A stretch of DNA of 58,922 bases, filler included, from Sphacelaria rigidula (GCA_964200075.2; 10 parts of 10 records of this genome joined end to end with filler, not necessarily neighbours in it); one strand, 5' to 3'. Shown: positions 880 to 35,485, numbered from the whole stretch's first letter. Numbers and translations: made by a program. Notes: a model not told the origin generated them from the sequence alone.

Positions 880-3800
880 CTCCTTGAGGACCATGACCGC
901 TGGCAGCGCGAAGCCGTACTTGCCGCCCTGGATGCAGTCGCGCACCCATTTTGAAGACGCCAAGCCACTTTTCGAGTTGTTATGCGACAAAATAAAAAAA
1001 GGGGGAGGGGGTACCCATGATGTTGCATGCCGTAGCCATAAGACCGTTGACCTCGGAGAGGGAGAAGGGGGGGCGTACTCATTTATTGCTTGCCTTAATC
1101 GTTCGACCATTGACCACGTATCCCTTTTGAGTCGGAGCACAGTTTCTACTCCTAGTAGAGAGGGGAAAGGGGGGAAGAAAAACGAACACAAAATACATGC
1201 TTATTCCATTTTTAAATAGTTGGTGCCGGGTGTGTTGCGCGGCGTCAGGTACTGCACAGTTTAACGTCAATGGTCAAGCACTGTAACCCCATATGCTGCT
1301 ATAACTCCCCTAATTTTCACCATGTCCAGAATCATCTCATCACTGTTGACGGCTACATTCTCCAACTCCCCCAGGTTTTGCGGTACGTCGAGACCACGTC
1401 ACGTACCTCATCACGAATTTCTTTTTCTCGTGTCCATGAGACAGGTACGAACCTTTACCGTGCACTTCGCTATATCTAGTTTTTTACGCGCTTTCAAGGG
1501 CGCTCCACCTCGCCACCGCCTCGAATTATCAGCGCGTAAACCATAACTGACATTAAGGCTGTCCGGTGTATGGATAGGTACCAAGGTGGGGGTGCCCCCC
1601 GCTGCCCCCCCCCCCCCCCCCCCCCCCCCCCGCACCCCCGTCTGCCGTCGCTTCTCTCCCCCCCCCCCCTCCTGCCTCGTATCCTCTCCTCCGACTCNNN
1701 NNNNNNNCCCGCTCGATTTTTCAGCGCGAAAACCATAACTTCCATAAAGGCTGCCCGGTGTATTTAGAGGTCCCAAGGGGGGGGGCCCCCCCTCTCCCCC
1801 CCCCCCCCCCCTCCAACCCGGGTAGTCTATGACTTGAATGATTCCCTCGTCCTCAACTAGGTAGGGTCATCTTCACCGAGCAAACCTCCTTTCAATGTGC
1901 CCCAGCTCGACTCTGTACACGAGTCACCCTACCCATCCCGGCGTTGGTCCTCATCGCGGATATATCCACCACTCGGACGCTAAAATTTACCTTTCGAAGT
2001 ATAATCGTCTCGTTGCTCTTCTCTCACGATTCGAGGTTTTGCTTGACTTAGTAGCACAACGCAATTTCGTGCACAGTGTTTGATACTACAAGAATATTTC
2101 ACATGAGCCCCGTGTCCCTCCATGCGGGATAAGAAGTAACCCTCCCCCTCCCTCCCTAGGCACCCAACCACACGTCCACGTAAAACTCGACGTACCCGTG
2201 CTGCGGACTCTCGAAGGAGATGTCGAGCGGAATGTAATCCATGCCGCTGCCGCCGCCCTGCCACGTGCTGCCATCATGGTTGCCCTCGTCGAAGGGAAAC
2301 TGTCCGCTGCCGCCGCTTTGAATAGGGTCCGCGAGAATTTTGATGACCGGCACCGCTGCCGTGTCGATGACCTACATAACACACGTGCGTAGAACGCGAT
2401 TTCTTTTCGATTCTAGTCTTCTTTATATTCTTCAAGACTAGGGGGCTGGGTATTAATACTAATAGTTGATACTCCGACATTCGTACCGATACTATACGCA
2501 CATACATGCACTCAACTCGTCAATTGAGGGGCGGGCATACATCGCGCACTCCCGGCACCGTGACCCATTTTCTTAGTGGCCCAAGAGCGGGGGATAGGGG
2601 TAGTAGGGGTGGGGGCGGGAGAATCGCGACACCCCTTGCAATATCCCAGGTGAACTTGTGTATCGGTGTGGACTGAGCTGAGTGCTCCCTCGACATGCGA
2701 ATAGAGACTGAGAGAAAAAGATCTGCCCCTGCTCCGATCTGGTGCCGGTCACAGCCAGTAAATACTGCCCACAGCGGTACTGCACGACCAAAAATAGAAG
2801 GGAGCTGAAAACAGTTACGCAAGACGGTCGTCTCTGTCACTTTCAAAGGCAGCTACGGTATAGGGTACAGCAGAATAGCGTACGCCACGTACCGCTAGTT
2901 GTGGGTACATGCAGTGCCGATAGCACCGACTACCCACAGCACGAGTATTCCAGGGTGCCAGGATACCTGGAGTATGGGCATTTCCAAAACATCACTGTGA
3001 CGTTGATGGATTTTTATGCGCGTCGGTCTTCAGAGGTAATGGCCGGACAAATATTCGGTTTCAGTGTGAACTATCCTATTAAAACGTTCGAGGGGGGCTC
3101 AGGGTCCCAGGTGCTCGGCAGAGTATGCAAGGCGCGTTTTTGTTCAAGTCGGTGCCGATTCAAGCTCTGCCAACGGACACCTCGCCCAGGACATCTCACG
3201 TGCCTACAGGCTGGTTCACGCTTATCAAGCAAAGAGCAATCATCTGCAGAGACTTGACGCAGTCATCAGGAGTTAGACCCTGATACTTTGCGCAATTTTG
3301 ATATGGGACAGTACGCAACTTTCTGTTGACGATTTTTTTTTTCAACTTCTTAACTTTTCCACCGGATTTCGGGGGTCCCAGGATTCTCACGAGGTCTTGG
3401 ACGCCGTGGATCCCCGAAAACTGGTGAAAATCGAAGAGTACAGAGAACTCATTCATGGACATTTTGTGATGATCCAAAGTATGGGTGTGCAAAATTTCAT
3501 GCTTTAAATCCTAGAAATGGCGTGACTTTTTGCGCTTTTGAGCGATCAAATGAGCTTGAGGAAAACTGTATGAGGTTTTTGAGTTTCGCAGCCAAACTTT
3601 GTGCAAATGTATCTTGGACTACCCGGGACGCATAATATTAGTTATCTTATTTTGAATCATTCTGTACTCTTCAAGCTGGAACCCCCGGATGCCGGCTGGT
3701 GTAGAACGGAGAAACTATCAAATCTCGTCATCAATACATTTGTTCCATTTAGAGCACCAACACCTACGGAACTGTCGAGTGTGAGGGCGATCTGAGCTTC

Positions 3801-5471
3801 TCCACGACAGACATAAGGGAAACCTTCCTGGGTCTCTCGTGCGTATCATGAACGGAAATCCGCCGACGCCAAAACTCCATCTCACCGAAATATCACGGTT
3901 TGAGGTATAACTCGGTCCATATGGTAACCGTTTCCAAGTCTGTTTTCGTCGGTTACATCCCAAGCTGATGGCGATCACGGCGCTTCGAAGCATGTGGAGA
4001 CTGGGAAGAAACTGGGGTGAGAATTCGTGTTTTTCGATTTCAGAACAATTTTAAGGGCGCTGATTGGTGAAGGTATCCTTTTGCCCTCAGTACCACCGTC
4101 ATGGCCTTGAACAAAAATCCAGCTGTCACCCTGTTCGACTAATGAGTAGGCACCGTGGAAGGCATTTGATTATGACACAATTTTGGATGATAATAGTGAA
4201 CCAGCCTGTACCTTGCCTGGGGATTCTTGGGATGCTTCGGGTCAGGGTCAGGGTTCAGTAAAAAACAGGCATGCCTCGGCCCTGAATTTTGGCAACCAAC
4301 TCGCGTGAACGTGCCTTGATGACGGTGGATGCGCCCCCCCATGTGATACGAATTTGGGAACGTGGAAACCCATTATTAGTGCGTCACTTTTATCGAGCCC
4401 CTCGTTCCTCGAGACGGGTTCGCGATCTCAAGGGATCGACCCAACCCATCTTTACCCCAGTACACGCCTTACATCGTGGTATCGCGGATGACATCCGCAC
4501 CCCCGCACCGTGCTGACTGCGTCTAACAAACGCCGTAGATACCGACATGGTGCAAAAAAACGCCAAAAAAAACACTCTCAGGAGTGTCATTCGAGGAGGG
4601 GGGTGGGGGGGTGGATACACTATGTACCGGTGATATTTTCCCTCACCTACCGTAGCTACCGATACCTATACCCGACCTACGCCATACTTGGCCCACTGGC
4701 ACTGCTTTGACTACCAATTTGACAAACGTTTTTTCGGAGTTCAGAGAGGCCAATACATGTGGTGGGCGCCGTCCTGTCGGCAATTGTTCTTCGCGCGTAA
4801 GCTGGAGAAAGAGAAACGTCGCTCTTGACACGAGTGTTTCTTCCTGTTATTCCTCTCTCACCTGAGTTTCTGGCTTTCAAGAACAAAACACACGCAGCCA
4901 ACCATCCACTACCGCACGCAGACACCCTAGGCACATCGAGCATGCGATACATACCCAACCACGCGAGCTTTGACGAGAATACGAAGCAACACGCATGTCT
5001 GTGTACGCTGAGACAACGACAAGGTACAGGTTTTTGGGGTCTGCAAAGAAATCAGCGGCACACGCGAACACACGTGCGTCTCACCATGGCTGTTGGGAAT
5101 TCTTCTTGTCTCTTTTACTCGAGTTTCTCCGGAAGGGGTGCTCATGTTTGTTAACCTCGGATACGTTCATCTCGTCAACGCCGCTAGACTCGTATCATAT
5201 CCATTCATGTGAGATAATCGAATACTCAACCGATCGATCAATAAAGACACGAACACCGTGTAGACGGTGGACGAGAACAACGACACAAATGAGTAATGAC
5301 GCACCTTCATCCCTCGTACCCAGCTCTGCTCTTGCAGGACGTTGGCCAGCTTTTGCAGGTTCGCCACCGTGTGCATGCCGTTGTACCCAGCGCGCGACCC
5401 TCCGTAGCTAAAATTCGTCCCATTTATCCCGCACACCACCACGTCAACGTCGCTGCTCGGCAGCTCCAAGC
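880..5471 (-). CDS. Partial non-canonical poly(A) polymerase / terminal nucleotidyltransferase (TRF4/PAPD5/Cid14-like). Exons 5471-5305, 2371-2196 and 967-880
   Basis: Three AG/GT-bounded exons splice in compatible phase to GLELPSSDVDVVV...VIDTAAVPVIKILADP...IPLDISFESPQHGGLASSKWV...PAVMVLKE. This contains the Pol-beta NTase DxD motif and the third Asp (LDISF). Confidence 0.85.
1001..1055 (-). mobile_element. 5'-truncated retroposon 3' end, subfamily B
   Basis: Minus strand reads GAGGTCAACGGTCTTATGGCTACGGCATGCAACATCATGGGTAC then a C-run. It matches the copies at 14157, 19480 and 35415 and abuts the C-tail of the adjacent A copy. Confidence 0.75.
1074..1160 (-). mobile_element. 5'-truncated LINE 3' end, subfamily A, with target-site duplication
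   Basis: Minus strand reads ...GTGCTCCGACTCAAAAGGGATACGTGGTCAATGGTCGAACGATTAAGGCAAGCAATAAATGAGTACG-Cn. Flanked by direct repeats GAGAGGGAGAAGGGGGGG (1056-1073) and GAGAGGGGAAAGGGGGG (1158-1174). Confidence 0.8.
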
Positions 5472-6319
5472 CTTCCGAACGTACAACAGACAGAGAAGTA
5501 CAGAAACAGCGAAATATGACAAGTAGCTGGCAAACAATGAACATATACATCCCGAGTCCTGATATAAACGTAGACTTGGTGTTCAAACAGCTCGTGGATG
5601 TACTGCATTCGGGCCGACGCCCTGCAATCACAGGCGTAATGCATGCTTCTGTACCAACTGGTAGGATGGAGTTTCTTGTGTGCGATCGTCCGGTAGATGG
5701 CGCTTATCGCTCGCGAGAAGATGTTGTTCACGGCACACACGACCCCCCCCCCCCCCCCCCCCCCACCAACACACAACAAAAAAGCCCGGGGAAAGGGGGA
5801 GAANNNNNNNNNNNNNNNNNNNNNNNNNNNNNNNNNNNNNNNNNNNNTTAATTAATTAANNNNNNNNNNNNNNNNNNNNNNNNNNNNNNNNNNNNNNNNN
5901 NNNCCCCTACCCCCCCACCCCATTATTGGCGTCCCTGACGGCGAGGCTTTCTTTCCTCTTCATAGTGCTTATTACGGTTAGCCGTGCGGTTGGAAGTCCT
6001 CATCTGCTCATCCTCATCAATTACGGTTAATGTCGGGCTTTTTTTTATGTTCCACCATTGCGTTCAAACCTCCGCCCGTGCAAGACCCGTGGCGCTGATA
6101 CGTTCGGCACTGCTGCCACGCGCGTCAGCCGTGGCTTACCACTAGTATTATATTATTATGTATATATCAAACGAATTCGACAACTCTTCGAAGCAACGCA
6201 CGCGAACTTCTGCGGCTCCCTTCGAAGTTTTTCATAATCTGCACGCGCTCCGGCATCCACCGCGTCTGGATCTTCCCTGAAGTGTACACCATACTTATAA
6301 CATTCGATATCTGTCGACC

Positions 6320-6660
6320 GGCCAATACATTGGCACGCAGGCAGACCCAATACATATATATTGACCGGTCAATATGTTCCCACCAATGCGACCCTAATAT
6401 ACATTGGTCGTGCAATATGGCGTCGCTCACACTACCCCAATATATACTGATTGGACAATACGTGTTCAACGCCACGGTACCAACATATATTGGGCGGGCA
6501 ATATGTATGCAGTCCCACGACATCAGTATATATTGGGCGCGCAATACGTGTGCAGTCCAAGGGTACCAATATATATATATATATATTACGCCAGCAATAC
6601 ACCGCAAAATTCCAATGCGATCGACTAATATATATTGAACACACATTGTATTGTCCAGGG
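6320..6660. repeat. Degenerate tandem array of roughly 40-45-bp units built on CCAATATATATTG
   Basis: Repeated ccaa(t/c)atatattgg..gcaata(c/t)gt.tgcagtcc units. It resembles subterminal repeats of a DNA transposon. Confidence 0.65.
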
Positions 6661-6867
6661 TGTGCACATGTCCTATGTCGGCGGTTCTGCCGGCGGCCTC
6701 GGTCCGAATTCCCATTTTTCCGAACGATATACGAGATACATGCGATGTTTTGTACAGCCACGATCACTACTGTACGTTGAGATACAACAGTCTCTCTTAT
6801 CCGTAAATTTTCGACTTGCGTCACCCCCGGGAGGCCCGTACCAACCTCCCCAAGGGGAACCTTGTAA

Positions 6868-7030
6868 GATATGTAAGGTTTTTGTGCAATGTATGGAAGA
6901 AAGTTAATGAGGGCCCAAATGTTGGAGGAGTCTCTACTAGGAGTAGGAACGGTGCTTCGCCTCGAAAGGGGTGCGTGGTCAATGGTCAAAATACCAAGGC
7001 GCAAGCAGCGAATGAGGACGCCCCCCCCCC
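6868..7030 (+). mobile_element. LINE 3' end, subfamily A (longer copy)
   Basis: The frame RFLCNVWKKVNEGPNVGGVSTRSRNGASPRKGCVVNGQ is followed by a C10 run. Homologous to the other A copies. Confidence 0.8.
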
Positions 7031-7276
7031 TTCCCTCGTTGACTAGATTGCGGTGTTTTATTACTACGAAGAATGCTAGGGATAGGCGTTGACACACAGG
7101 CTATCCAGGCAATGCTCAGTAACATAGCGAGAACAGTATGCTCCGTTTGGTGTTTATGCGGAGTAATCGCCGTCAGTTGGAGTTGTCAAGTATTGGATTT
7201 CTTGGCTGGAACAGTATGGACCGATCTGAGAAACGATCCCGGACAATCTAGATCTTTTATGCGGTAGGATACGACG

Positions 7277-8207: not shown

Positions 8208-9084
8208 TGTTGCAGGCGATCTGGACAGCGATACATTTGCGCGTCGAGCACTTACAATATCAGGGGGGGGGGGCATCGGAGTCGTACCTCGGCACTTGCC
8301 TAATAATTCGAGGGTTCTACAGTGGAAGCAACCGCGGCATCATGGAGCAAGCCTTCAACGTACAAACAAATCTCGAGTGAACCCCCAACTTTGACCGAAC
8401 CAGAATGGTGTTGCGCGAATGGCGGTCGAAGGTTTGTGTAGTGATCGACTACTCGAACACGTTCCTCGACACTGTGGAGGCGAGATGATGCCCGGAGTCA
8501 GGAGGAGGACAGCTGCTGGGCGACATTGCAGGAGTTCCACCAGCCATTGAGCAGGCAACCGAAAGATGGTAGAGCGGGAACCAACACCTCTTCTCGACCC
8601 TGTACCTCCTTATCATCGGGTCGGTGAACATCTTCGTGCAAGAGTACAAGGGCACAAAACCGGGAGAGGGACTCGGCGATGGCATAGCTGCCTGGGAAGC
8701 GCTTGCGGGTAAGTACGACAGCTTCTCCACAGAGAATCCGCAACCGTGCTACGACAAGTTGTGCCACACCAAGATTCGGTACAAGAAGGATGCGGAGGAT
8801 TCCTTCTATGCTGCATGTTAGTGGTGTCAGTGTCGAGGAACGTGTTCGAGTAGTTGATCACTACACAAACCTTCGATCGCCAATCGCGCAACACCATTCT
8901 GGTTCGGTCAAAGTTGGGGGTTCACTCGAGATTTGTTCGTACGTTGAAGGCTTGTTCCATGATGCCGCGGCTGCTTCCACTCTAGAACCCTCGAAGTATT
9001 AGGCAAGTCCCGAGGTACGACTCCGACGCCCCCCGATATTGTAAGTGCTCGACGCGCAAATATATCGCTGTCCAGATCTCCAAC
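8208..9084. repeat. Two inverted copies of a roughly 265-bp solo-LTR-like unit (8208-8474 minus, 8816-9084 plus) inside the copia gag region
   Basis: Long, highly similar reverse-complement match. Composite termini are TGTTAG...GCAACA. The second copy interrupts the gag frame. Confidence 0.85.
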
Positions 9085-11806: not shown

Positions 11807-11872
11807 TACTCATTTGTTGCTTGCCTTAGTCGTTTGACCATTGACCACGCATCCCTTTCGAGACGGAGCATA
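11807..11872 (-). mobile_element. LINE 3' end, subfamily A, cut by the contig edge at its C-tail
   Basis: Minus strand reads ATGCTCCGTCTCGAAAGGGATGCGTGGTCAATGGTCAAACGACTAAGGCAAGCAACAAATGAGTA. A C-run also lies on its 5' side (11883-11902). Confidence 0.8.
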
Positions 11873-12034
11873 ACTCTAATCTGGGGGGGGGGGGCGGGGG
11901 GGCTTGGATAAAATGAAAACGAGGTTTGGAGCTTGACGCTTGTCCATGTGCAGATATGCATTTGAACTTGAACATTATAGATTCAACATCGTCGAAGATC
12001 CCATTATAGTTGTTTGCTCGTCGGATTGCTGACT

Positions 12035-12235
12035 CCTCCACTCAAGTCGTTCATCACAAGCAATAACTAGTGTGCTCGAGTCATTTACTTCGCCACGAGC
12101 GATGACTCGAGTACTCGTCCCATTGCTTTTTTCCACAACGAGCAATGACTCAAGGACTCACCCAACTTATTTCTACGACCAACGAGCAGCCCAACGAGTG
12201 CGAGTGCCATGAGTCATACTCGTGCTCATCCGACG
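12035..12235. repeat. Degenerate tandem repeats (ACGAGC.ATGACTC / CTCGAGT motifs)
   Basis: Several imperfect recurrences of acgagc(g/a)atgactc and actc motifs. Confidence 0.45.
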
Positions 12236-12917
12236 TGTGATTTTTTTCGTAGGCTGCGATGTCCAATAGCGGTTTCGCGTGGCACCGCTCATCCCAGTGG
12301 ACGTTTGATCCCGAAGTTTGGGGATCGGGAGATACTAGGTATACGCTCCATATTCCGGAACAAGGATCGCCTCTGCACCCATATTGAACGTCTTACGGGC
12401 TGACCAGTCCTCGGGGGTCCTGCGACTACCCAGACCCAGGTTCTGACCCTAGGGCATTTCTGCTGGATGGAAGCAATCTTGATCGTTCTCGTGAACGACT
12501 GTAAATAAATTTGTATTTCATTTCCACTTATTCATTGCGCCAGAGCCGGTCGATAACACGCCCCTGATACACGAGGTCTTTACTCCCTATCACCCCGACA
12601 ACATCAACTTGAGGATTGTGTCCTGAGCACCACGTGCTTCTGTTCCCAATATCTGTCGAAGGTTAGACTTTCTAGTGCTGAGGTAGAATGCTATCCCGTA
12701 GGCAATCAAGAATCGTTGGATTCCGCTCGACTGCTTCGCTTTTCGTGCGTGCTATGAGGCATTGTTATGGTGCCTGTGCGCGTGCGTGCGTGTGTGTTGA
12801 GCGACGGTACACATGAGCTCGGGCGAAAATGGATTCTCACCGATGATTGTACGTCTCTTATTTTTTTGTCTCGTGCCCGTACCTTGTTCTCCGTGTGGCG
12901 CGCACCCGTTTTCGCAG

Positions 12918-13363
12918 GTGATTCTGCTGGACAAGGCGAAAGACGAAATTATGGCTCTGCGCTTGAAGCAGGCGGTCAAGGGGACCATCAAGGTTCGTTG
13001 CCATTTTACGTTTTGTGTTTTCGGGGGCTGGTTGGTTGGTTGGCTGTTGCGTCTGGGGTCTTGTACTTTGCACGCCGTCTCACTGGAGAACCCCCCCCTA
13101 TCTCCTCCCCCTTCCCTTTTTCTTTTTTCGGGTTTTGATCTTGATCCCTCGCCTACCCCCACATGGCACGCACTGGTGATGCCTCTGGGTGTTTCCGTCG
13201 CACGCGAACACGTGGCGTTGCTCAGTCTACGGATGAGGCGAAGAGTAAGGACAACTACACCAATGCAAAAGCGGCTTATCTGAAGGCGAAGGAATCGGAG
13301 CTGGTCCTCCCGGAGTGGACGAAGGGGTGGATCAACCCTCCGGATCGAGAACAGTTCCGACAG
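12918..13363 (+). CDS. Two internal exons of an unidentified protein-coding gene (12918-12992 and 13226-13363)
   Basis: Phase-0 CAG/GT-bounded exons of 75 and 138 nt encode VILLDKAKDEIMALRLKQAVKGTIK and STDEAKSKDNYTNAKAAYLKAKESELVLPEWTKGWINPPDREQFRQ, with coding-like composition. Family not recognised. Confidence 0.65.
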
Positions 13364-14156
13364 GTGATGAAGGAGAACTCCTGTAGATAACGTGCGGGTT
13401 CCCGGCTGCCCCCCGGCCCCCCTTTTTTTTCGCTTCACCTTCAACCCCTCACCTTCCTCGAGAGGGGAATCGAATTCATCTCTGCCCCCCGGCACCTGCG
13501 ACAGAAAAATGGAAAAGAGCAGATAGGGTTTGGTTTGTGTGCTGCTCCAGCACACGCTCAAGTGAGTGGGGTCCTGTAGATTCTGCGTCTCCCCCTCCCC
13601 CACGCATACGAGTATGAAATGCAAAACAGAAGGCAGCTTCTTCCCCGGGGTACTCTTGATCCCTTCCCTCCCCTTCCCCGGGACGAGTCCGTGGTCTCTG
13701 AGGATCAACAGATCTCTCCCATGGTAGTGTACCTGCCTGATGGAGACAGTTCGTATTCGAGGGTTGATTGGATCATGACTATCAGCACCCCCCGCACCCC
13801 GTTGACTCGTCGCAATTTTCTGTTTTTGGTTACTTGTGCCGCCATGCTTTCAAAAACGGGAATGATGTTCTGCTGAAAAAGGCCGTATCTATGTGTCGTG
13901 CTTTCGAACCCGCAACCCGTCGCCTCTACTAAAATAACTGACGGTCGGTGTGCAATTTTAATTTAGATCACCGGGGCGCAGGAAGCAATCACAACATGAC
14001 ACAGTATATATCACTCGCGGGTGATGCGTGTTTTGCGCGCGAAAAGTTATCATTCAAGGTTGTGATTAGGGGCGTGGTATCAAACGTATCCCGAGCCAGC
14101 ACTCGAGATATAGATGTGGTGCCGGAAATAGCCAAAAATCGATCACCCGAGGGGGG

Positions 14157-14261
14157 TGTACTCATGATCTTGCATGTCCTATTGTAGTTGTATGGCCATT
14201 GACCTCGCATCCCTACAAGGCCGGGACGGAGCACGCCGGGTTTTCGCCGGACCAGGCTCGT
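14157..14261 (-). mobile_element. Retroposon 3' end, subfamily B, with a roughly 14-bp target-site duplication
   Basis: Flanked by TCACCCGAGGGGGG (14143-14156) and TCACCCGGTGGGGGG (14262-14276). The body matches 19480-19593. Confidence 0.85.
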
Positions 14262-15387
14262 TCACCCGGTGGGGGGGAGGAAGGGGGAGTTTCTGGGGGT
14301 GGTATTCAACGTACAAAGTGATGTACTATTCTTATATGTGGTACTGCTCAGGTACTGTAGATTTAATGATTGCAGAGGTTTTGCTAAGGAAAAATGTGCT
14401 TCGATAGTGTGTAATACTGAAAGGTTTGTTTTATGCGGTTGTCGCTATCATTGTGAATTTTCGCTGCAGAAAACAAAAACGTGATGCGGCTGGGGAGCGC
14501 GCAGAGCAGACGCGTGACAACAGATTATATGGGGTCCCTGGGTTTTTCTACTGCGCGGTCTGTGGCAGGGTGTCGTATGAAGCGTCACATATAAGATGTT
14601 TTACTTTGATTGTTTAGCGTGTATACGATACCACTATTCTCTCGAGGAAAACTGATCTCCTACGGGCGCTGTGTTGACGTGCTCTAGTCGTATACAGTAG
14701 TCCGCATACCCTAGACGGCAGACAACATTGTCAGAGACTGTACTGCGTAGAGAATCGGACATTTTGTCTACTGTAAGAGCCAGTAGAATCAATACTGTAT
14801 GAAACACACATTGTGACGATGTAGATGTGATAATCTGGGTTGGCGTGTGCAGTGTGAAGCACGCATAGGTTGACGGTAGGTAATCCTACACGGAGCGTGA
14901 GTTCCCTCATTAGGGAACCGGGCAGCCAGCAATCTGTTGGTCATGGAGGATGACCTCTCGTGGGTGTTGTGATGGGGATTGGAGTTTCGGAACGTGAGGA
15001 ACGCTCTCTCCTACATGTGTAGGTTCTTTGTTGGGTTGAAAAACGGTGCGAAACAAAGAAAATGAGTGAGCAGAAGCAACGTATGGAAAGGAAATAGTGG
15101 TGGGGCACCGTACCCGCGAACTGCAAAAGTTGTGATGAATCGAGATCAGTTGGCGAAACCCTGGTACTACGTGTCGGTCGGCAATCGAGAACAAGAACAA
15201 GCATAATAACGAGGATGGGGGCGGGAAAGTATCGCATTGATGTTGTGTTGCTTCCTGCAAGGTTTGGCACAGGGAAAAGAAAAAAACAAGATGTGAGTTA
15301 CTTTTCCCTACACGACAGTTGACACTTTTGTGTGTGTGTGTGTATGTTTTTCGTTTTCGACAAAAAAACGGAAGGGTCCATAGGCAC

Positions 15388-15410
15388 AGTTGTTGTTGTT
15401 GTTGTTGTTG
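15388..15410 (+). repeat. (GTT)n microsatellite, possibly a retroposon tail
   Basis: Perfect gtt run after gggtccataggcaca. A (TG)n run lies just upstream at about 15329-15343. Confidence 0.7.
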
Positions 15411-16224
15411 TCTTCAGGCAACGGGCAGATAGGCTAAGGTGTGTTCACCAGAAATCACATCGATTAAATTTGTTTCTGCCCGAAGATTAAATCAGCTCCG
15501 ACCACTCCGTCGTCCTCCCATGGCCTCGTTGCACCGCAAACAAATAACAACTACCAACCCGCTCGCTCAACCAACCAATCGATCACCATGTCGCAGGTTC
15601 TGCCTCGATATCTGGGCTTTATGGCGTTCACCCTGGGGTTCCCCTCGGCTTCGGGGAGTCTTCAGCTAATCGGTGGCGCTAACTGCCTCGGAACCATAAT
15701 CAACAGGTGAACAGTTGCCGAGCCCAATACTGGTTACCCGGAGGTGTTCCGAGTGGTTTGGCGGAAGGGCATGATATGCAAGATGATGTGCGGTGGGCTG
15801 AGGGTTTGCAGCTGTGGTTCGTCGTGGTGTACTGGTAACGTGCTGTATTCCTTGTTGGTCTGACGCTCTAGGGGGTGCCGGCATGAGTGAGAGAGGGAAG
15901 ACAACGAGCGGAAGTAGGTTTGATTTTTATTCCGATAAAAAGGAACTTTCTGGTTGTTCCCATACTCACACTTTCGAGGTAATTTTTTCTTTGTTGTCGA
16001 GTTGCAGTACCCACCCAGAAGTGATGATTGCTTATCGTGAGCCCTGAACGTGGTACTGAATGTGTTGAGTTTCACCAAACACAAGTGTGGTATTCATTGT
16101 GCCCTTCCTTGCGCGGTGTGTCCCCGTGGCGTTGACCGATTGCCACAGGAAATAAACGTCTTTGAACAGAACGATTTCACCGTTGATGCCATGTGACACT
16201 GTTGCACGTTTTCTTTGCATGTTC

Positions 16225-17378
16225 CATACGGTTCTAGAAAATGAAGAGAAAATCAGCGAGGAGCAAGCAGGATTTAGACCAAACCGTAGTTGCGTAGACC
16301 ATGTGTACATGTTGGGTGAGATTCTTCAGGGTAGGAAAGACGCCGGGCTAACAACGTACTGTTTCTCTACGGACGTGCAAAAGGCTTATGAGAGTATGGG
16401 GAAATGGGCTGTGGAAAAAGTTGGGGGAAACTGGGATCAAAAGAAAGATGTGGAGAATGGTGAAGAAGATGGCAGAATGTGCCGAAAGAGATATGATGCT
16501 AGACGAGAAAATATCGAATGTTTCGATGTTTTACGAGGAGTTGATCAAGGATGTACGTCATCATCCCCTCTATTCAAGGTGTTCATTTATGAGTCGATAT
16601 TAGCAGCAGAAGCAGCAAAACAAGGAGTCGCGGTGGGTAAAGATTTAGTATCAGGATTGATGTTCGCGGATGATTTTGTGGGGATTTTAGGAACAGCAGA
16701 AGGATTACAGAAGGAGATAGACAAGGCGCTAGAATGAACTAGGAAATGGAGAGTGACAGCGAACGTCAACAAATGCGCGGTACTCGTCTGTAACTGAGAT
16801 GAGAAAAATCCGGTAGACTTCAAATGGAAGTGGGGAGAGGAGGAATTACCGATCGTAGACCAGTATACATCCCTTGGTGTAGGGATATCAAAAAGCTGTG
16901 CTTGGGATGCACACATGAAGAAAGTAAAATAAAAAGGTAAGCCACAGATAAGCGGAATGGAAGTGATCCTCAGAGACTCGCATCTAGATGCTGGGATTAG
17001 GGGATGCATCCTGACGAACGTGATGGTACCAAAGCTGGGATATGTAGGAGAAGTATGGGAGGGGAACGTGAACGTGAAGAAGGCGAAGAAGATGGAAATA
17101 GTACACATATCAGTAGCTGAGAAAATACTCGGATGGTCGAAAACGGCGAGTAATACAGCATTGAGAGCAGAGTTGGGAATGTACTCACTTGAAGCAAACA
17201 GAGACATGAGGAAGTTGAGATGTCAATATAGCGTGAAGAACATGCAGAGAAAGGTTGCCAGCTATATCTGATGACGCTGTATGGAAGAAGATTACGCAAG
17301 GACGGGTTAGAGTAAAGGTGGGATAAAGGAGTCAAGAAAGTATGGAAGGAGATGAGAGGAAACCAAGACGAAATACTA
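16225..17378 (+). mobile_element. Non-LTR retrotransposon (LINE) reverse transcriptase, decayed and truncated at both ends
   Basis: Motifs EEQAGFRPNRSCVDHV, DVQKAYES, GVDQGCTSSSPLF, LMFADDFV and KCAVLV, followed by YTSLG and LRAELG. Contains frameshifts and stops. Confidence 0.95.
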
Positions 17379-17500
17379 GAGCTCGGAAATGGTCTGTCCA
17401 ACCATTCACCAGTTGAATGGTTACGCGTAGCGCACTCATCAACCAGTTGAGTGGTACATAATAGTTTGGTCATCGAGCGGTGCAGCCGCCAGCCAAAAAG

Positions 17501-17553
<53 letters not shown>

Positions 17554-18812
17554 CCCGCGCCGGGCGGGCCCGGCGCGGCGCCGGCGCCGCGCGCGCGCCC
17601 CCCCGCGCNNNNNNNNNNNNNNNNNNNNNNNNNNNNNNNNNNNNNNNNNNNNTTAATTAATTAANNNNNNNNNNNNNNNNNNNNNNNNNNNNNNNNNNNN
17701 NNNNNNNNAAAACCAAGTAATTTCCAGACGAATCATTATTTGTCCGACCCTTGGAAGTTTCTGAAAACTGGGGAAGGCATCCCTCTGGTTGCTGTGCGTA
17801 CTTGTGTTCAGGAGATCTTGGTGCAACTTCGGCCAAGATTGTTCAGGAAGCAAACAGTTCACCCACGGAACCAGTGAGCGCTCACTGGTTCAATGGGTGA
17901 ACTCTTCGCTTCCTGAACACAAGATATGGGGTTTGAGACTCAGCATGATCAAGTGTGGAAGGAAGAAATTTAAAACGTGGACAGTGAGACTGGCGAGGGG
18001 CAACCCGGAGATCACTGATGTGTCATGCCGGGACAGACCGCGCAGAATATCTTTTGTTCAGGAAGCGAAGAGTTTATACCCATTGAACCAGTGAGCGGAA
18101 CACTACAAATTGGGCGCAGCATCCAACTTTTCGTGTGTGACACCGCTGCTGCTCTTGAATCCAAGTGATACAGGAGACTCCAGTTATGGAGGTCACGAGC
18201 TAGAATCCCGACGGATTCCTCCTACTTGTTCCGTCGGTGAGGTTATATATTATGCAGTACATTTTGTTCATTATTTTCTACATTCAGCGACCGTGCCGTG
18301 CATCACCGGGTTGGTCTGCACATCACACCGATATACTCAAGTCAGGTAGATTTGTGAACTCCGGAAGTTATGGCGTGACACGCAAATGCGAATTTTACTG
18401 CTGGACCAACACGCAGTTCATCGGATTCCCAGAAAAGCAACGCACTTCTTGATGCCGCCCACATCACTCGACCACTTGTTTTGTCGACGGCTTCACACAG
18501 AAAAGGCGGGCGCTAGAACCGTTTTCATATACATGAGACAGTTTTGCTGTGCTGGCCTGGTCAACCCACGTACCCACTGGACGGCACACTTTTGTATGAG
18601 CGATCAATTCATGTGCTTTTATCCAACGAAGGAGCGTCTCACCTGTTCGAGCCTGAATTCTTGCAGTGAACGAAAAAAACATGACTCGTCACACTCACGC
18701 ATCCATCCGAGGGAGCTTGAGAGGGTCTGCCGCGAAACTCGATGAGTCGAAATAAAAAATATGGCTGGAGGGGTACAACAGTACACTCTTCATGGTGCCC
18801 CGTAATTCTCAC

Positions 18813-19906
18813 CTCCCGCTCATGTCGTCGTGGATATGACAGAAGTAGAAGATCTCCGTAACGTCAGGATCAGTTACCGTGAGGCGGACGGTGTAGTTAG
18901 TCTCGAGCCATGTTTCCTCGGGAAAAAAGAATTGGGGCTCGTAGGTGTCCAGATCGGATTCCTCTCCGTTGATAATGTATACGGGTTCGTCGCCTGTTTT
19001 GAGAAGAAATTTTGTCATTGGCGTTGGAGGGTGAATTTTTGCTGACGGCCAGGATGCCTGCAGAACATTCTTTTTCGGGTTTACAGAACCGTCTTCAGTT
19101 GCTTTGTGGCGTTTATGGCGTCGGTTGCAACGACGCTGTATAGATCGCGAATCACAGCGTAAGCTAGGCAACCAGGCTACCTCTTCTTTGCTTGCGTTTT
19201 TTTGCGGTAACCGTGATGGTGATAGATCTGATTACGCGACGTGGATAACAGAACTCCGCGCGAAGGGGACGATCTTACCAGGTAGTGTGTATATGGTGAG
19301 GCACCCCTGGGGCAGTGTGAAACCCGTCGCTGTCTCTGGAAGTGGCGATGCCAGAAAATGTGTCACTTTGGCTGTTATCTACTCAAGATAATAGTACGCT
19401 CCGGGCCGAATATTCTTCGCAGGATGCAACCCACTCTCCATGCGACTCGCCGAACACACCACGGTGCTTCGCGCTTGGTGATTGAGTGCGAGCCTGGTCC
19501 GGCAAAAAACCGGCGTGCTCCGTCCCAGCTTTGTAGGGATACGAGATCAACGGTCCCATGACCACGGCATGCGAAGCCATGAGTACACACCCCGTCCTAC
19601 CTCCACCTCTCCCTCGAGAACGATCACGTTTTTCTAAGCTGTTGTTTGACCACGGTCCTTCCTCCCCGTTCTTGAAAAGTAAGAGAGTAGATGCGGTGAA
19701 TTCATCCGAATACCTTTAAAAAAAACGTGCAAGTTCATCACGATTGACAGAAATCACTCGGTATCGCTCGTTCCGTTCACTCACCGTTTCCAACCGCGGC
19801 TTCAAGCTCGTCCACACCATCATGGGCGCCGTCGGGGTAGTAAGCAAAGCCCAGCGGGTGGAACCAGTTCGACGCATCGAGCTGGTCAAACACGTAAGTC
19901 TCGCCC
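18813..19906 (-). CDS. Partial cupredoxin-like (type-1 copper motif) protein. Exons 19906-19785 and 18993-18813
   Basis: Phase-compatible AG/GT exons give GETYVFDQLDASNWFHPLGFAYYPDGAH...YEPQFFFPEETW...EIFYFCHIHDDMSG. This has an upstream His (HPL) and a C-x2-H-x2-M loop. Confidence 0.8.
19480..19593 (+). mobile_element. Retroposon 3' end, subfamily B, in an intron of the cupredoxin-like gene
   Basis: Reads GAGCCTGGTCCGGCAAAAAACCGGCGTGCTCCGTCCCAGCTTTGTAGGGATACGAGATCAACGGTCCCATGACCACGGCATGCGAAGCCATGAGTACAC, then a C-rich tract. Confidence 0.8.
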
Positions 19907-22317: not shown

Positions 22318-22460
22318 TGTGGAGAAACGTAATGAGCGCCAGAATATTGGAGGTATATTGGTAGTAGGAACGGTGCTCCGTCTCGGAAGGGATGCGTGGT
22401 CAATGGTCGAACGACCGAGGCAAGCAACAAGTGAGTACGCCCCCCCCGCCCCCCACCCCC
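22318..22460 (+). mobile_element. LINE 3' end, subfamily A
   Basis: Reads ...GGAACGGTGCTCCGTCTCGGAAGGGATGCGTGGTCAATGGTCGAACGACCGAGGCAAGCAACAAGTGAGTACG-Cn. The frame ends NGAPSRKGCVVNGRTTEASNK*. Confidence 0.85.
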
Positions 22461-23610: not shown

Positions 23611-23684
23611 AGTGTGGGGAAAGCACTGTTTGAGGCTTGAAGCTCATCTCGGAGTTGAACCTCAATTCGCACAATTTGTTGTTG
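23611..23684 (+). repeat. End of a high-copy element finishing in TTGTTGTT (family D)
   Basis: About 70 bp that closely match the starts of two other contigs (41317-41384 and 47219-47286). Confidence 0.9.
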
Positions 23685-29412: not shown

Positions 29413-30262
29413 NNNNNNNNNNNNNNNNNNNNNNNNNNNNNNNNNNNNNNNNNNNNTTAATTAATTAANNNNNNNNNNNNNNNNNNNNNNNNNNNNNNNN
29501 NNNNNNNNNNNNTGGGGGGCCGGAATGTGAAGGGTTTTTTTATAAGGGGGGGGAACGGTGCCCCCTCTCAAAGGGGGGGGGGGGACAAACCCCCCCCCCC
29601 CCCCCCCCCCGGTATACGTGCCACTCAGTTCTGACGAGACACCACCTTCTCAGCGGAGCTCGGGGAGTATGTTGGCGAATTGGGCACCTATTGCACTGAC
29701 TGTATCGCCAGTTCTACCATGCTTGAGCTCATAAGGGTGCAGCAGCGTCACGCAAAACGTTGCACGCACGGCCCAATTCGACGACTCTAGAGCTGATATG
29801 TCACGAAGACCTCCTGCACCCAAGGAAATGATACATCACGGGAGCAGCTGCAGATTCTCGTCATTTTCCTGGACTTCCGACATTGTCTTTTTTTCGCTCC
29901 AATTTCAAACCCTCGAAACTTCTTTTTTCTTCTTGTTTTTTTTTCCTCTCTCGTCATATTCTGCATGTTGATCATGATGAGCTGCTGTCAAAATTCTAGC
30001 GTCAAACTCCTCATTTTACGCTGTGCGTCGCCTGAGCGAGAAACGCACCGACTCATGGCTGGGCTGGTCCAGCTCGTAGCCGCGTTGGTGTGAACTCAAG
30101 CGCCGTTTTCTTCGGCTTCGATGTTTCATGAAACGGATGTACCAGATATGTACCTGATCGCTTCGTTAGCATTGAAAATAAATAGTTTGGGCTAAATGCA
30201 GTAACCCTTCAGTAACCCTTCCCGTGCTTACTCACCTCTCACTTCCTCTTGAACGAAACCAG

Positions 30263-33200
30263 CGAGTCTGCGTATCACGCGGGAGACGAGGTGGCCGTGG
30301 CTTGGTTCTACGAAGGAACTGCGGAGAAGTTTCAGATCACGTTGCAGAAACAAGGGAAGGATGTAGCAGATCTCTGCGAGAACGAAGAGAATGGGGTCTG
30401 CTATGACTTGACGCAGGACCAGACCGTCGTTCTCCCCGAGTGAGTGGCAAGTGGGATGTTTGTGTTCTTATCGCCAAAGGTTATGTAACTTATTTCATCC
30501 ACCATGTCGAGCTCATCCCATGCAAATGGGATCGCCGCAGGGTCAAGATCATAGCTGGACTCCCAGCTTACCTTTTTCCAGTCACGATACGGGCTCTTGA
30601 ATCAAGAGTTATTACTTCAGTGCGGTAAGGGGGCAATAGTAGATGGACGTTGGGTCACCGACCGGGTTTGTAGCTGACGAGTCCACGTGGAGGCGGTGTC
30701 CTCGGTAGCTAACGGCAGTGGAAGTAGTCGTCGGTCAATTGAACAGTTTCACAGCCTGGACAACAGATTCCATTGTCGAAAAGTGTGCAGCGTAGAGTAT
30801 CGACTGTTGCGTTCATTGCAATAGACGAGAGGTTTCATAGTGTTGTGCGCAGTACATTGTTCGGCAGTGGAATCTAGTGTCCAGGGTGTGAACAGTTTGC
30901 CACAAATACGTGGGGGCAGTTTTTCGCCCAGATGCCCGCTCGACTCTTTTTTCTCCGGCGGGCCGGGATCGTTAGTTCCTGAAGCATGGTGTGCAGTTGA
31001 CTCCCTGAGAAAGCCCGGCCCGCCTCACCTATCGGCATCAACAGCAAGCTAGGGTTGCACCTCGTTCTGGTCACGTGATACAGTCACTTCGTAATGTTCC
31101 GTGTCTAGTGCCTCCAACACGAAATACAACACACTCGCCTCACGTTTCGCTCCAACCGATGTGCGTACTGATCACACTCATCAGAGACCTTGAATCGGGA
31201 TCGGACTACACGATCACCGTGGAGGACAACGATACGGGCGATTCGCACGTGTCGGACCCCTTCACCGTCATCGGCGACACCGATGTCAACATAGAGATCA
31301 CCTCTCCTGACGGGTATGTTCTTGTCGTACCTGTCATGCTGTCTGATTTTTGTCGGCTGGAGATGACGATGTAAACTGCTGTATGGCGTCGGCTCTGCGA
31401 GTATTGGCCTCACCTTGTATCTTGTCTACTGCTGCATGATTGGCGGTCATCTCTTATCTATTTGAGCCAACAACGACCTTCACAGGAACGTCGTTGTAGA
31501 GTGCTGCTGGTTTGGCACTTGCAAGTAACGTTACCTGACATAGAGTGTAGAGCGCTGATCGAGAGTGGCGTTGGTCACTCGCTTTACCTCAGCCAATATT
31601 TCATTCCGTGTGTGCTTATTTTTGCCTCCATCACTAGCGTGTGCTCACAACTACACGTAGATATCCCACCCTGGAACCCCAAGGGTCTCAGTGGAAAGCT
31701 ACTACAGAACGCATATCGGGCCTCGCGAAAGGGTATTTCGGAACTAAAACGGTTCATTCACTACTTGACCGCTCTTCACCCTCAATCGTATCCTCTACTC
31801 TCAATCTCACGAAAATATTGTCGAGCACGGCGGTGTGGTACATCTATCTGACTCACCATGGAAGGCCAAACCTCCCATGCCCCCCACCCCCCGCGCCACC
31901 CTCGGTGACGTATTTCTGTTCTCTAACAGTCATTTCTGAGAAAATTTTCTTCTGAGAGTACCGCAACGTGTTTGTACTGGTCTCTTCACTTGCATAGTAC
32001 ATTCTACTGAGCGTGTCCCATTTCCCCCCACCCTCGCGCACGTGATGAGCTTTCAAATGTTGGAGGTGTGTCCATCAGGGGTAGGAAAGGTGCTCCGTCC
32101 CGAAAGCGATATGTGGTCAATTGTCGAACGAATAAGGCAAGCAACATGTGGGTACGCCCCCCCCCTCCGCGCGCACGCACGCACGCACGCTTTATTGAAT
32201 TGATGCAGGACCTCTTCCTTCGAAGCGGGGGAACAGATCGAGGTGGAGTGGCTGTACGTGGGCGATAACCAGTTGTTCGATATATACGTTCGTCAGGGTG
32301 ACGGTGACTTGAGCGTCCGTGTAAGCGAGAACCTCTGCGCGGGAGAGAGCAGCGGGTCTTGCCTGGGGTCGAATGTCGGATCGGCCACGGTGACGATCCC
32401 TGCGGAGTTGGCTGATGGCTCCGACTACACTCTGCTCGTTGTGGACACCGAAGACGATGACGCGTACGGCATATCGGTCTCGCTCTCCGTGGGTATTGAA
32501 TTGTCGAGTGAGATCAATGAGGGATTCTCGACCGGCACCAGCCTCGCCATCGTTATCGGCGCGTGCGCCGGAGGTGCGTGTGATGCGGTGAAGTCGCCGT
32601 CGTTGGCTGCAAGATATTGTTGACCCTGCGATGTTTAGAAGCATGATTCGTGTGCCGCATGCCGTAGCTGTGAGTACGGAGGTGCATTTGCCGAATGTGT
32701 ATTTCCTTGTGTTTGGATTTCCCCTCTCCACTTTTGCACATAACTGTTCCCGCCACCCCTGTCGGACGACGAGCCGAATCTATAACCGAAACGTCTCGTA
32801 TCGGTAAGTCGAGGTAATCAACTTTGTTTTCTGGTGAAATATAACATGGATTGCAGCTCCCATTTATTGGCTAGAGCCAAATTTTTCGAGGTCACGTGAC
32901 GGACCGTTGTACAGAGAGGTAAGAACGAGGCTATTGAGCCGCCCCCCTCCCCGTGCTCCCTGTTTTGGAGGAAATTTTGCCATTTGACACTCACGCCGGA
33001 GAACGATGTTGAACACTCGACCTCCCCCCCCCCGCGACCCCTGCATTTCATGCTTGCTGTGCAGGGATCTGCTTGGTAGCACTGCTCATGGCCGTGATGC
33101 GCAGAAGAAAGAAGGAGAAACTGCGCGAAGAGAAGTTGGCCACCCTGGACATGATGCAAAAACGCCGACGCGCCCCGTCCGTTGCCCTCGCCGTCGAGGA

Positions 33201-33674
33201 CATGGCGCTGCCCGACACACCTCAGGTGCGTGTTTTTGATGTCGCACAAGGAAAGCATCTGCCGAAATCGAAGAGTGCCCTCCGTTTCGGCTCTGTATTG
33301 AAAGTGCACTGTCAACTGGAATGTGTGATACGTTGTCGTGGTACGTGGTACGTGTTTCTGTACATGCGTTACGTAAAAGCTTTACCCGCGTGTTTCGGCT
33401 GGCGGGTGATACATTGTTTGCCCAGGGAGACGAGGACGTTGCGTTCCTGGCGCGCGGGTATGGTGAGAATTGTTTAAAGCATAAAAGTTGACAGGGAGTC
33501 TTTCGAAAATAGCGCATAGCGTGTCTTACTTGTCCCACTGCTTTATCCTGAACGTAGACTAACACGTTCAGCTTTCCTGACAGCAGCCACGCGCCCCGGA
33601 GTTCATCTACTGTGCACTTATTCAAAAATTCAAACCACACGTGCGCAGGTAGAGTGAGCACACCCTCCCTTCCC

Positions 33675-33735
<61 letters not shown>

Positions 33736-34040
33736 CCCTACGCTATCACATCGTCTCCGAAGAGCCTTTTATAAACAAATGCGAGTGTCTATTTCGGGTT
33801 TTTTCTTTCTCTCTTGTTCTCCATCCCCCAACGAAATTCGTGCAGTCGGACCATGGCAAGGATTCGAAGAGGAACTTCATCAACCCGATTTATTCCACGA
33901 GCCAGAGTTACTACGAGGGGCAAATTACGCCGCCTCCCGAGGATACCACTCTCTGGCGTCGGAGCCGGGAGATGGGTCGCTACGTGGGCCGGCAAATCAG
34001 CCAAACGATCAGTCGTTCTGAAAGCCTATTGGATGACTGA
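30263..34040 (+). CDS. Single-pass membrane protein with two Kre9/Knh1-like (PF10342-type) beta-sandwich repeats. Exons 30263-30439, 31185-31313, 32209-32573, 33065-33225 and 33846-34040; 5' end not resolved
   Basis: Five CAG/GT exons join in consistent phase to TGA at 34038-34040. Two repeats (AGDEVAVAW..FQITL..TVVLPEDLESGSDYTITV and AGEQIEVEW..FDIYV..TVTIPAELADGSDYTLLV) precede a TM segment SLAIVIGACAGGICLVALLMAVM, a basic stop-transfer RRRKK and a cytoplasmic tail. Confidence 0.88.
31500..31850 (+). repeat. Dispersed repeat of about 350 bp (family E), intronic
   Basis: Reverse-complement homolog at about 37540-37860 on another contig (shared ctcaatcgtatcctctactctcaa.ctcacgaaaa and ttcggaact.aaacg.t.cattcacta). 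Confidence 0.8.
32043..32165 (+). mobile_element. LINE 3' end, subfamily A, with a degenerate target-site duplication, about 40 nt upstream of a splice acceptor
   Basis: Flanks are CCCCCCACCCTCGCGCACG (32024-32042) and CCCCCCCCCTCCGCGCGCACG (32157-32177). Confidence 0.8.
33664..33738. repeat. Long poly(C) tract, one of many (also about 1605, 5743, 17501 and 35187)
   Basis: Homopolymer run seen directly. Several contig ends coincide with such tracts. Confidence 0.95.
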
Positions 34041-35187
34041 CTCGATAGTATTAGTAAATAATGGTACGGTAAAAAGCGAAACGATATGTAGGCAAGAAAT
34101 GACGTGTGTGTGGGTATTATCCGTTCGCGCGTGTATGTGTGTGTGTGTAATGTCGCCGACATGGCGTAAGAGCCTCTCTCTCTGGCACCGCCTCCCTTTC
34201 CCCCCCGCCCTTTCCCCCTACCCTTCTTTACCCTCCTTAACCCTTCTTATGTTACATACCTGTAGCTCCCTATCCTGTTGACAACTTTGCGCCTGTACGC
34301 ATCTCACACGCTGATGAGGGTATCATCACGTCCGTCTCACGTATCTTTTGACGATGATTATTGTTATTTTTCACGTGCTCTTGATATCTTCTCGTCCGTG
34401 CCGCCGTGCACTGTCTTCTTTTTGTGTCCCCTCGCGTTTCTCATTGTCGGGGGGACTTGAATTTTTCGTGTATTACGACGACAAAAATACAGGGCAAAAG
34501 CGGAATCTGTGTTCGTTTGTCGCTTTGCCTGCCCAAGAAGTGGAGATCCAGGTCCTTGGTCGAATCTCCCCGGGGCACGGGAACACCTCAGGATGAAGGC
34601 AAAAGCCCTGACCGCGGCGACCCCATGTGCTGAATTTTTGTTTCGGAACATTTTGACTCCTTCAGAGCTAGTTTTTTTGTGTTTATTTTTATTTTTCGGC
34701 ACTTGAGTTTCTGTTTAGGCATTTCAAACGCGGGTCTAGCCGCGCGCTGTTGCTGTGGATACTGAAACGTGGTTTTGTCAGTCCGCTTTTTTCCTCGTGA
34801 ATTTGCGACGTGATCGTCCTCCTCCACTTCTTTCATGTTGCAGCAGCGGCAGCAGCAGCTGTCACGTTACAAAACAGTTTTCACGCGGACAGTCTCGCTT
34901 TTGATAACGAGTATACCGCGGGGCCCTCGGACGAAAAATGGCTTTTTTTTTTTGCCTCCGCAGGCCTTTGAATATTGTTTTCGTCGAATGCTGTTTTGTC
35001 AGCTGCTACTCATGTCATGCGCCGCTACATTTGCTCTTCCCTTGAGGTCGAGAGTTGTGTGTATATTTTTTTGCCCCAGCGTGTCTTGAATCAGTCTCAA
35101 CAGCGGTGACATGAAAAGAAAACGTCGAGTGTTGTCCGGATGAGTTTCCGTTCTGGATTCAAATCCCTCCCTCCCAAGCGAGTATCG

Positions 35188-35233
<46 letters not shown>

Positions 35234-35414
35234 ACACGAGCGCCCCCAAACGCCCGCCCGCGCCGCTTTCGGGGGCCCGCGGCCGTGTTGTGGCGTGTTG
35301 TTTTTTTTTTTTTTNNNNNNNNNNNNNNNNNNNNNNNNNNNNNNNNNNNNNNNNNNNNTTAATTAATTAANNNNNNNNNNNNNNNNNNNNNNNNNNNNNN
35401 NNNNNNNNNNNNNN

Positions 35415-35485
35415 CGGCTTTGTAGGGATGCGAGGTCAATGGTCTGATGACTATGGCATGCATGATCATGAGTACACCCCCCCGC
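35415..35485 (+). mobile_element. Retroposon 3' end, subfamily B, at a contig start
   Basis: Reads CGGCTTTGTAGGGATGCGAGGTCAATGGTCTGATGACTATGGCATGCATGATCATGAGTACA-Cn. Confidence 0.8.

Follow-up and report, generated by a model that had tools for sequence, protein, structure and literature searches.

Short C-tailed repeats in the window

We analyzed a 58,922-nt stretch of Sphacelaria rigidula DNA (GCA_964200075.2; hereafter the window), which consists of ten slices of ~5.8 kb separated by spacers of the form N44-TTAATTAATTAA-N44, with respect to a group of short dispersed repeats that share a 3′ end followed by a run of Cs, and to their relation to a long interspersed nuclear element (LINE). 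The window is eukaryotic DNA with retrotransposon debris, in which RVT_1, Integrase_H2C2, gag_pre-integrs, and zf-CCHC domains were recognized. A reading made from the sequence alone (the sequence-only reading) had proposed about ten copies of the repeats on six contigs. We searched the window by blastn with six copies as queries, and also compared the flanked copies with one another. Nine copies were recovered, five of a family designated A and four of a second family, B, spread over 6 of the 10 slices. The tenth proposed copy, an A-like, homopolymer-ridden stretch at a slice start (29513..29610, plus strand), gave no blastn match with the six queries, and its alignment is loose, amid many homopolymers; we regard it as doubtful.

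The family A copies lie at 1074..1161 (minus strand, ~88 nt; A1074), 6711..7020 (plus strand; A6868), 11807..11870 (minus strand, 64 nt; A11807), 22318..22439 (plus strand, about 122-131 nt; A22318), and 32040..32156 (plus strand; A32043). Ten Cs at 7021-7030 follow A6868 and C8-G-C6-A-C6 follows A22318, and the 3′ end of A11807 is cut by a slice boundary. Family B is represented at 1012..1055 (minus strand; B1001) by a 5′-truncated copy of 44 nt, found by blastn, whose 3′ end abuts a G-run at 1001-1011 (a C-run in element orientation), and at 14157..14262 (minus strand; B14157) by another 5′-truncated copy. The copy at 19480..19587 (plus strand; B19480) is followed by CACCCC and has its true 5′ end at least 30 nt further upstream, and that at 35415..35476 (plus strand; B35415) is followed by C7 and has its 5′ side cut by a slice boundary.

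The nine copies have the common 3′ end ...ATGAGTAC(G/A). With A11807 left out because of the slice boundary, each of the eight copies that retain their 3′ side ends in (A/G)TG(A/G)G(T/G)AC(G/A) and then 4 to 10 Cs. The terminus is ...TGAGTAC(G/A) or a one-base variant of it, and the Cs adjoin it directly, except in B19480, where they come after CA. By chance, a C-run of at least four would start at 0.34% of oriented window positions. No A-run or poly(A) was found at the ends of these eight copies, in agreement with the earlier description of a fixed 3′ end with a C-run in place of a poly(A) tail, and no terminal repeats of the long terminal repeat (LTR) or terminal inverted repeat (TIR) type were seen around the copies.

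Relation of family A to an endonuclease-reverse transcriptase ORF

We scanned metagenome contigs with a 20-nt core of the repeat and obtained 70 loci, three of which, all on marine contigs, are true relatives (L011, L018, and L051). The other 67 were bare 20-23-mer chance matches and were dropped, and the same core had no match in viral contigs. L011, L018, and L051 contain the A sequence in full, with 77-86% identity to the query window copies; their homology extends upstream of the A sequence and is common to all three, and the 3′ C-run is present in 3/3 (as C-T-C7 in L051). On L011, positions 694-4455 of the minus strand form an open 1253-amino-acid (aa) open reading frame (ORF), designated P0013, with matches to Exo_endo_phos (PF03372, residues 64-285; 3e-11), Exo_endo_phos_2 (PF14529, residues 173-308), and RVT_1 (PF00078, residues 634-883; 8e-33). 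It thus encodes an N-terminal apurinic/apyrimidinic endonuclease (APE) together with a reverse transcriptase (RT), the type of ORF expected of a non-LTR retrotransposon.

Family A corresponds to the last ~150 nt of the L011 ORF, which match the five window copies at 83-98% identity (98% for A11807 and 89% for A1074). The conserved core GGGATGCGTGGTCAATGGTC encodes ...KGCVVNGQ... (...SRKGCVVNGQMTKASNK), and the stop codon is the TGA of ATGAGTACG (AAATGAGTACG), 5 nt ahead of the C-run. Because the ORF extends right to where the element ends, the element has virtually no 3′ untranslated region (UTR) and no poly(A). Moreover, since A is the last ~150 nt of an intact endonuclease-RT (EN-RT) ORF, the window A copies are 5′-truncated LINE ends and not, as previously thought, a separate short retroposon. 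They start at five distinct positions on L011 (3633, 3659, 3660, 3689, and 3711), so the ragged 5′ ends described earlier reflect true 5′ truncation. For A6868, the nucleotide match begins at ~6865, but the protein match to P0013 residues 1160-1250 begins at 6711, which makes this copy ~310 nt long instead of 155 nt.

A fixed end by a G-run and a ragged other end would in principle fit retro-copies of a small capped RNA encoded on the opposite strand, with the fixed end as the RNA 5′ end and the G-run derived from cap-dependent extra nucleotides. Rfam (at gathering thresholds) found no family and ARAGORN no tRNA in the window, where these searches gave no sign of the RNA polymerase III head (tRNA-, 7SL-, or 5S-derived) of a short interspersed nuclear element (SINE) either; family A, as LINE coding sequence, is not a SINE. 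More directly, the orientation of the copies is fixed because A is the sense-strand C-terminus of the 1253-aa EN-RT ORF. As this ORF continues through the A sequence in L011, the capped-RNA reading is refuted, and we give it practically no credence.

A single ORF was seen on L011; the contig ends 9 nt upstream of it, leaving room for an ORF1, and one relative, P0002, is 1360 aa in length. Ectocarpus sp. provides the closest named proteins (58% identity with 99% query coverage, and 71% with 65% coverage), and the RT fragment in the window likewise finds its best named matches there. In LINE homologues (P0002-P0070) with as little as ~40% identity to the L011 ORF, the motif G(C/R)VVNG keeps a constant distance of 7-8 residues from the C-terminus. 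A looser form, V[VA][NDY]G, occurs in the last 30 residues of 25 of the 128 homologues, and 19 of these 25 have the full G(C/R)VVNG. Such conservation would fit a constraint on the protein or one on RNA linked to the 3′ end.

Taken together, these data make it likely that the copies are insertions of a LINE of the RTE class, from a brown alga or a close relative, with an APE endonuclease and RT, of which family A is the 5′-truncated 3′ end. The fixed 3′ ends, variable 5′ truncation and target-site duplications (TSDs), and lack of LTRs or TIRs all agree with a non-LTR retrotransposon, the TSDs being weak beyond the C-run.

A degraded LINE with a different C-tailed 3′ module

The earlier proposal of a LINE system, which the intact EN-RT ORF containing the A sequence bears out, also has a counterpart within the window. 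At 15943..17500 (plus strand) lies a degraded, 5′-truncated LINE with five in-frame stops and an RVT_1 match at 16156-16734. It is related to L011 up to 17384, with 77.5% nucleotide identity over 1147 nt and 59% amino acid identity. The segment at 17385-17500 is a different 3′ module, which has no relation to the A/B tail and terminates in ...CAGCCAAAAAG; 52 Cs come next, at 17501..17552 (plus strand), and then GC-only low-complexity sequence to the slice end. With this distinct module and its C52 run, the genome has at least two tail types that lead into a C-run. The 17385-17500 module also contains two near-perfect hairpins, AACCATTCA...TGAATGGTT and CACTCA...TGAGTG.

Abundance and tandem arrangement in public-run contigs

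We compared contigs from public runs (X1, X2, X5, and X6) with the window over one slice, 11807-17608. In a run search, the stretch was listed for one organism and for an 'algae metagenome'. In X1, the summed word depth was ~6-7 million in the A and B bins versus ~65-90 in flanking unique sequence; it was 0.1-2 million over the LINE body. Summed depth is not a copy number; these values therefore serve here to indicate very high repetition and no more. At the 5′ end of the B copy (14258), the consensus of the loose ends is poly-G on the plus strand in 346, 217, and 297 contigs of X1, X2, and X5, respectively, corresponding to a C-run upstream of the element. Joints through the G-run connect B 5′ to A 3′, A 5′ to B 3′, and A to A in tens of contigs each, and tandems of the type seen at 1012-1161 must therefore be common. 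The A-run-B tandem in the window and these contigs support the earlier suggestion that the system seeds its own targets.

A 1916-nt contig of X6 joins 15594-15707 to 13224-13360 (minus strand) by splicing, across a 2.2-kb intron of an expressed gene, which places B14157 (14157-14262) within an intron of that gene. The depth in X6 is high over the A and B bins, for which element transcripts, intronic RNA, and DNA could alike be the source.

We also considered whether the C/G runs are sequencing or assembly artefacts. Runs of C44-C57 near slice ends, accompanied by GC-only low-complexity sequence, are of a kind that would suggest this. Against it, short runs have unique sequence on either side, the same junction is found in 3 independent metagenome contigs and in run contigs from three studies, and the same junction type is listed in the curated Ectocarpus library (PMC12477816, as given in its curation table). 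An artefactual origin is accordingly very improbable.

Family B

Families A and B have only the last ~75 nt in common, from GTGCTCCGTC onward. In the frame of the LINE, B has five extra nucleotides and a TAG just before the shared core and is hence not coding in that frame. Most B copies continue 5′ in the run contigs, where the loose ends have a consensus matching the sequence upstream of B19480 (19450-19479). B19480 thus extends further 5′ than had been assumed, and family B is >140 nt long.

We read B as a probable non-autonomous partner that borrows the LINE tail and is presumably mobilized in trans. The sequence upstream of B19480 has no similarity to any of 129 LINE proteins. Alternatively, B could belong, as the 3′ end, to a second autonomous LINE with a body that lies outside the window. 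The loose ends at 14260, present in 742, 532, and 609 contigs of X1, X2, and X5, show that most B copies are longer on the 5′ side than those in the window, and the window's own LINE fragment shows that tails can differ between related LINEs. That proposal has to contend, however, with the missing protein similarity upstream of B19480, with the in-frame TAG ahead of the shared core, and with the metagenome scan, whose pattern also permitted the B core and yet returned no B-type locus among the 70. In addition, the RTEX-N families of Ectocarpus are described in their catalogue table as short and non-autonomous, with only 60-100 bp of common 3′ sequence (PMC12477816). We therefore consider a second LINE rather unlikely, though not negligible, and continue with B as the probable partner.

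C-runs on the two sides of the copies

In 5/7 copies (A32043, A1074, A11807, B14157, and B1001), a C-run of at least six occurs in the 25 nt preceding the 5′ end, against 1.7% expected by chance. This count omits B19480, whose true 5′ end is uncertain, and B35415, whose 5′ side is cut off at a slice boundary. At A11807, the 5′ flank at 11876-11902 reads C7-G-C12 in element orientation. The lengths of the upstream and 3′ runs are about equal (7/6, 6/7, and 6/9), so that target DNA makes up most of the run in the short copies, a view that the sequence-only reading had put forward at least in part.

The insertion of a B copy into the C-tail of an A copy, likewise proposed earlier, is borne out by the arrangement at 1012-1161, where B (1012-1055) stands directly behind the C-run of A (1074-1161). 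Between the two lies a C-rich stretch (1056..1073, minus strand) that is at once the 3′ flank of A1074, as a TSD copy, and the 5′ flank of B1001. The 5′ flank copy of this C-rich repeat (1158..1174, minus strand; GAGAGGGGAAAGGGGGG on the plus strand) overlaps the uncertain 5′ boundary of A1074. Besides this pair, flanking repeats had been reported for B14157, which stands between TCACCCG[A/GT]GGGGGG repeats (14143-14156 and 14262-14276), and for A32043, which is flanked by repeats initiated by the C-run (32024-32042 and 32157-32177). All three pairs, 14-21 nt in length, are present.

Several observations weigh against the interpretation that a LINE inserts at C-runs, or narrow it. As controls we took 4000 pairs of unrelated 24-mers, each likewise starting with six or more Cs, and against these the repeat pairs ranked at fractions of 0.24, 0.07, and 0.07. 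They are therefore weak beyond the C-run and singly unexceptional, because C-runs match each other, and a non-repetitive exact match beyond the run was found only at B14157 (CGGGTGA, 7 nt, abutting the 5′ end). The C-run itself, not the repeat pairs, is the robust statistic. Two copies, A22318 and A6868, have no visible 5′ C-run. For B14157, no empty site was found among the run contigs over 11807-17608, in which no contig skips the copy, and a contig of X5, from a second study, also carries B14157 and spans its 3′ junction. The consensus fold predicted for the last ~75 nt of 10 copies is a small hairpin (-4.85 kcal/mol) with 0 compensatory changes among 11 predicted pairs, so that a structured 3′ element in the shared tail is not supported by the folding model. 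The length of C52-type runs may be an assembly artefact, since a low-complexity contig end adjoins the C52 run. Finally, the group of the LINE, most likely RTE-X as catalogued in Ectocarpus, is assigned by analogy, the Ectocarpus protein matches being of unstated family.

Such observations bear on a further explanation, in which the C-run is a simple-repeat tail carried by the element itself, comparable to the (CAA)n of RTE or the (CA)n of CRE elements in Ectocarpus; sites would then be unchosen, and 5′ C-runs would arise by landing in older tails. Common A/B tandem arrays, one of them in the window, would be accounted for in this way, as would the two A copies that lack a 5′ C-run and the C52 of the degraded LINE, which far exceeds any flank run. 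The 5′ C-runs of B14157, A32043, and A11807, on the other hand, have no recognizable element end before them, the 5′ and 3′ runs have nearly equal lengths, and at B14157 the unique CGGGTGA after the run is duplicated as well. The Ectocarpus curators, moreover, list the TSDs themselves as C-rich in their table (PMC12477816). We thus regard an element-borne tail at unchosen sites as improbable. With 5/7 copies having a 5′ C-run, 8/8 a 3′ C-run, and an EN-RT ORF in hand, the data support the earlier proposal of a LINE specific for poly(C)/poly(G).

Comparison with known elements

Waldo, Kibi/Koshi, and Dong are microsatellite-specific LINEs of the R1 and R4 clades that insert into di- or trinucleotide repeats. 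As in those elements, the simple-repeat target here doubles as the tail, and element and repeat spread together; unlike them, the present element is of RTE type and sits on a mononucleotide run. The RTE class, which Malik and Eickbush are said to have described in 1998, reportedly has a very short 3′ UTR and a simple-repeat tail that is not poly(A), and is reportedly the parent of many SINEs. The LINE resembles that class in that one ORF encodes both the APE endonuclease and the RT, the 3′ UTR is all but absent, poly(A) is lacking, and partners have a common 3′ end, but differs from it in that tail and target are a C homopolymer and not AT-rich or (CAA)n repeats.

The closest likeness is to entries of the Ectocarpus repeat catalogue. 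Its supplementary file 1 describes the RTE-X LINE RTEX-1a_Ec32 with the words 'single EN-RT ORF; (C)n 3'' and a 'C-rich' TSD, and RTEX-2_Ec32 with '(C)n termini/TSD' (PMC12477816). Compared by the wording of this curation table, our element agrees with RTEX-1/RTEX-2_Ec32 in its EN-RT ORF, (C)n 3′ end, C-rich TSD, high copy number, and brown-algal host. The 3′ feature was found in 8/8 window and 3/3 metagenome copies and the 5′ feature in 5/7 copies. Our LINE has its stop codon 5 nt ahead of the run and carries the C-terminal motif, two features that the catalogue table does not mention for RTEX-1/2_Ec32 (PMC12477816). The catalogue also lists two non-autonomous families, RTEX-N1_Ec32 (607 bp) and RTEX-N2_Ec32 (188 bp, 'could be SINE'), which have 60-100 bp of 3′ sequence in common with the LINE, a TSD given as 'C-rich', and the remark 'can be present in tandem' (PMC12477816). 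By description, though not by sequence comparison, family B is like these two in having ~75 nt in common with the LINE tail and in occurring in tandem with A. RTEX-N1 totals 2.48 Mb according to the catalogue (PMC12477816); the 'Sower' repeat, described with the first Ectocarpus genome, is given there as about 2.5 Mb (PMC3145265), and in our own view the two may be the same repeat.

The sequence-only reading knew of no described family with poly(C) specificity. That statement no longer holds, as Ectocarpus RTE-X LINEs and their partners are on record in the catalogue table with (C)n 3′ ends and C-rich TSDs (PMC12477816). The C-run habit is thus already recorded for the nearest catalogued relatives, and the element is a LINE with a partner, not a new short retroposon. 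In the main text of the catalogue paper, a preference for C-runs is not discussed and 'c-rich' has 0 occurrences (PMC12477816). A search of the available literature for poly-C-tailed elements, non-LTR retrotransposons of this kind, and brown-algal RTE-X elements returned no description besides that catalogue (PMC12477816).

Beyond a line in the Ectocarpus curation table, the present analysis finds the C-run tail and target habit in another genome as well as in contigs from marine metagenomes. It also ties short 'retroposons' to an intact autonomous element and traces the genome's abundant C/G homopolymer tracts, along with many short dispersed repeats, to one LINE system. For annotation, the 60-300-nt pieces should be masked as ends of a LINE of RTE type and not as SINEs or small-RNA genes.

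Proposed mechanism

By analogy with L1, where a T-run primes on poly(A), the endonuclease would place its nick on the bottom strand, at a G-run edge, and the exposed 3′-OH of the G-run would pair with Cs at the 3′ end of the RNA. The endonuclease may recognize the run itself, or the run may serve only in this base pairing. Read-through into the C-run of the donor copy itself would be the sole possible source of these terminal Cs. The RT would recognize the last 60-75 nt of the RNA and copy it by target-primed reverse transcription, in many cases with a premature stop. A second nick, staggered by 13-20 nt, would then yield TSDs (13-21 nt) starting with the run and leave a C-run on both sides of the new copy. 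Every insertion would in this way regenerate targets, giving rise to tandem and nested arrays. The scheme would be like that of L1 in that a homopolymer at the nick primes on a 3′ homopolymer of the RNA and the TSDs begin with that homopolymer; it would differ in that C takes the place of A, the tail cannot derive from polyadenylation, and the run has about the length of the target run in short copies.

We put forward, tentatively and with less than even confidence, that three features are combined in this system: a cis-element for the RT inside coding sequence (the GCVVNG region, with the stop 5 nt from the tail in one element for which DNA is at hand), priming by a G homopolymer on a non-polyadenylated (C)n RNA, and self-seeding, in which the family itself makes and spreads the long C tracts of these genomes. 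If it works along the lines drawn from L1, a G-run-primed LINE without a 3′ UTR could serve as a clean natural system for telling apart the roles of endonuclease specificity and of primer-template pairing in target-primed reverse transcription.

Other repeats and open frames in the window

A tandem unit of ~100 nt occurs at 1520-1622 and 1712-1814. The two units are 83% identical and end in ...GGTGCCCCCCGCTG or similar, followed by C27 and C16; they may represent a further C-tailed non-autonomous family. Three other sites, 75-89 (minus strand), 44232-44241 (minus strand), and 52979-52987 (plus strand), carry ...CTACGATAG or AAGATAG, then C9-15, then AAAA. We rejected CTTTCTACGATAG plus C-run plus AAAA as a third tail type: the sequence after the run, AAAACCRGCYAAAAYTGT, is conserved in 2/3 copies, and the run is therefore internal to that repeat.

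The same ~70-nt repeat (90-97% identical) is found at 23616-23683, 41317-41388, and 47219-47290, where it opens three slices, so that contig starts coincide with the repeat. At 8215-8474 and 8828-9081 lies a 260-nt inverted repeat, 93% identical, with arms ~350 nt apart, which could be a foldback element or the TIRs of a DNA transposon. Long open frames of 676, 223, and 302 aa, without Pfam matches, occupy 48536-52978 (plus strand), and within this region 52463-52876 is 31% identical to the N-terminal part of a Gypsy-like chimeric protein of Ectocarpus (P0006). Together with an Integrase_H2C2 region in slice 10 (57704-58099), the region at 48536-52978 is probably LTR-retrotransposon material.

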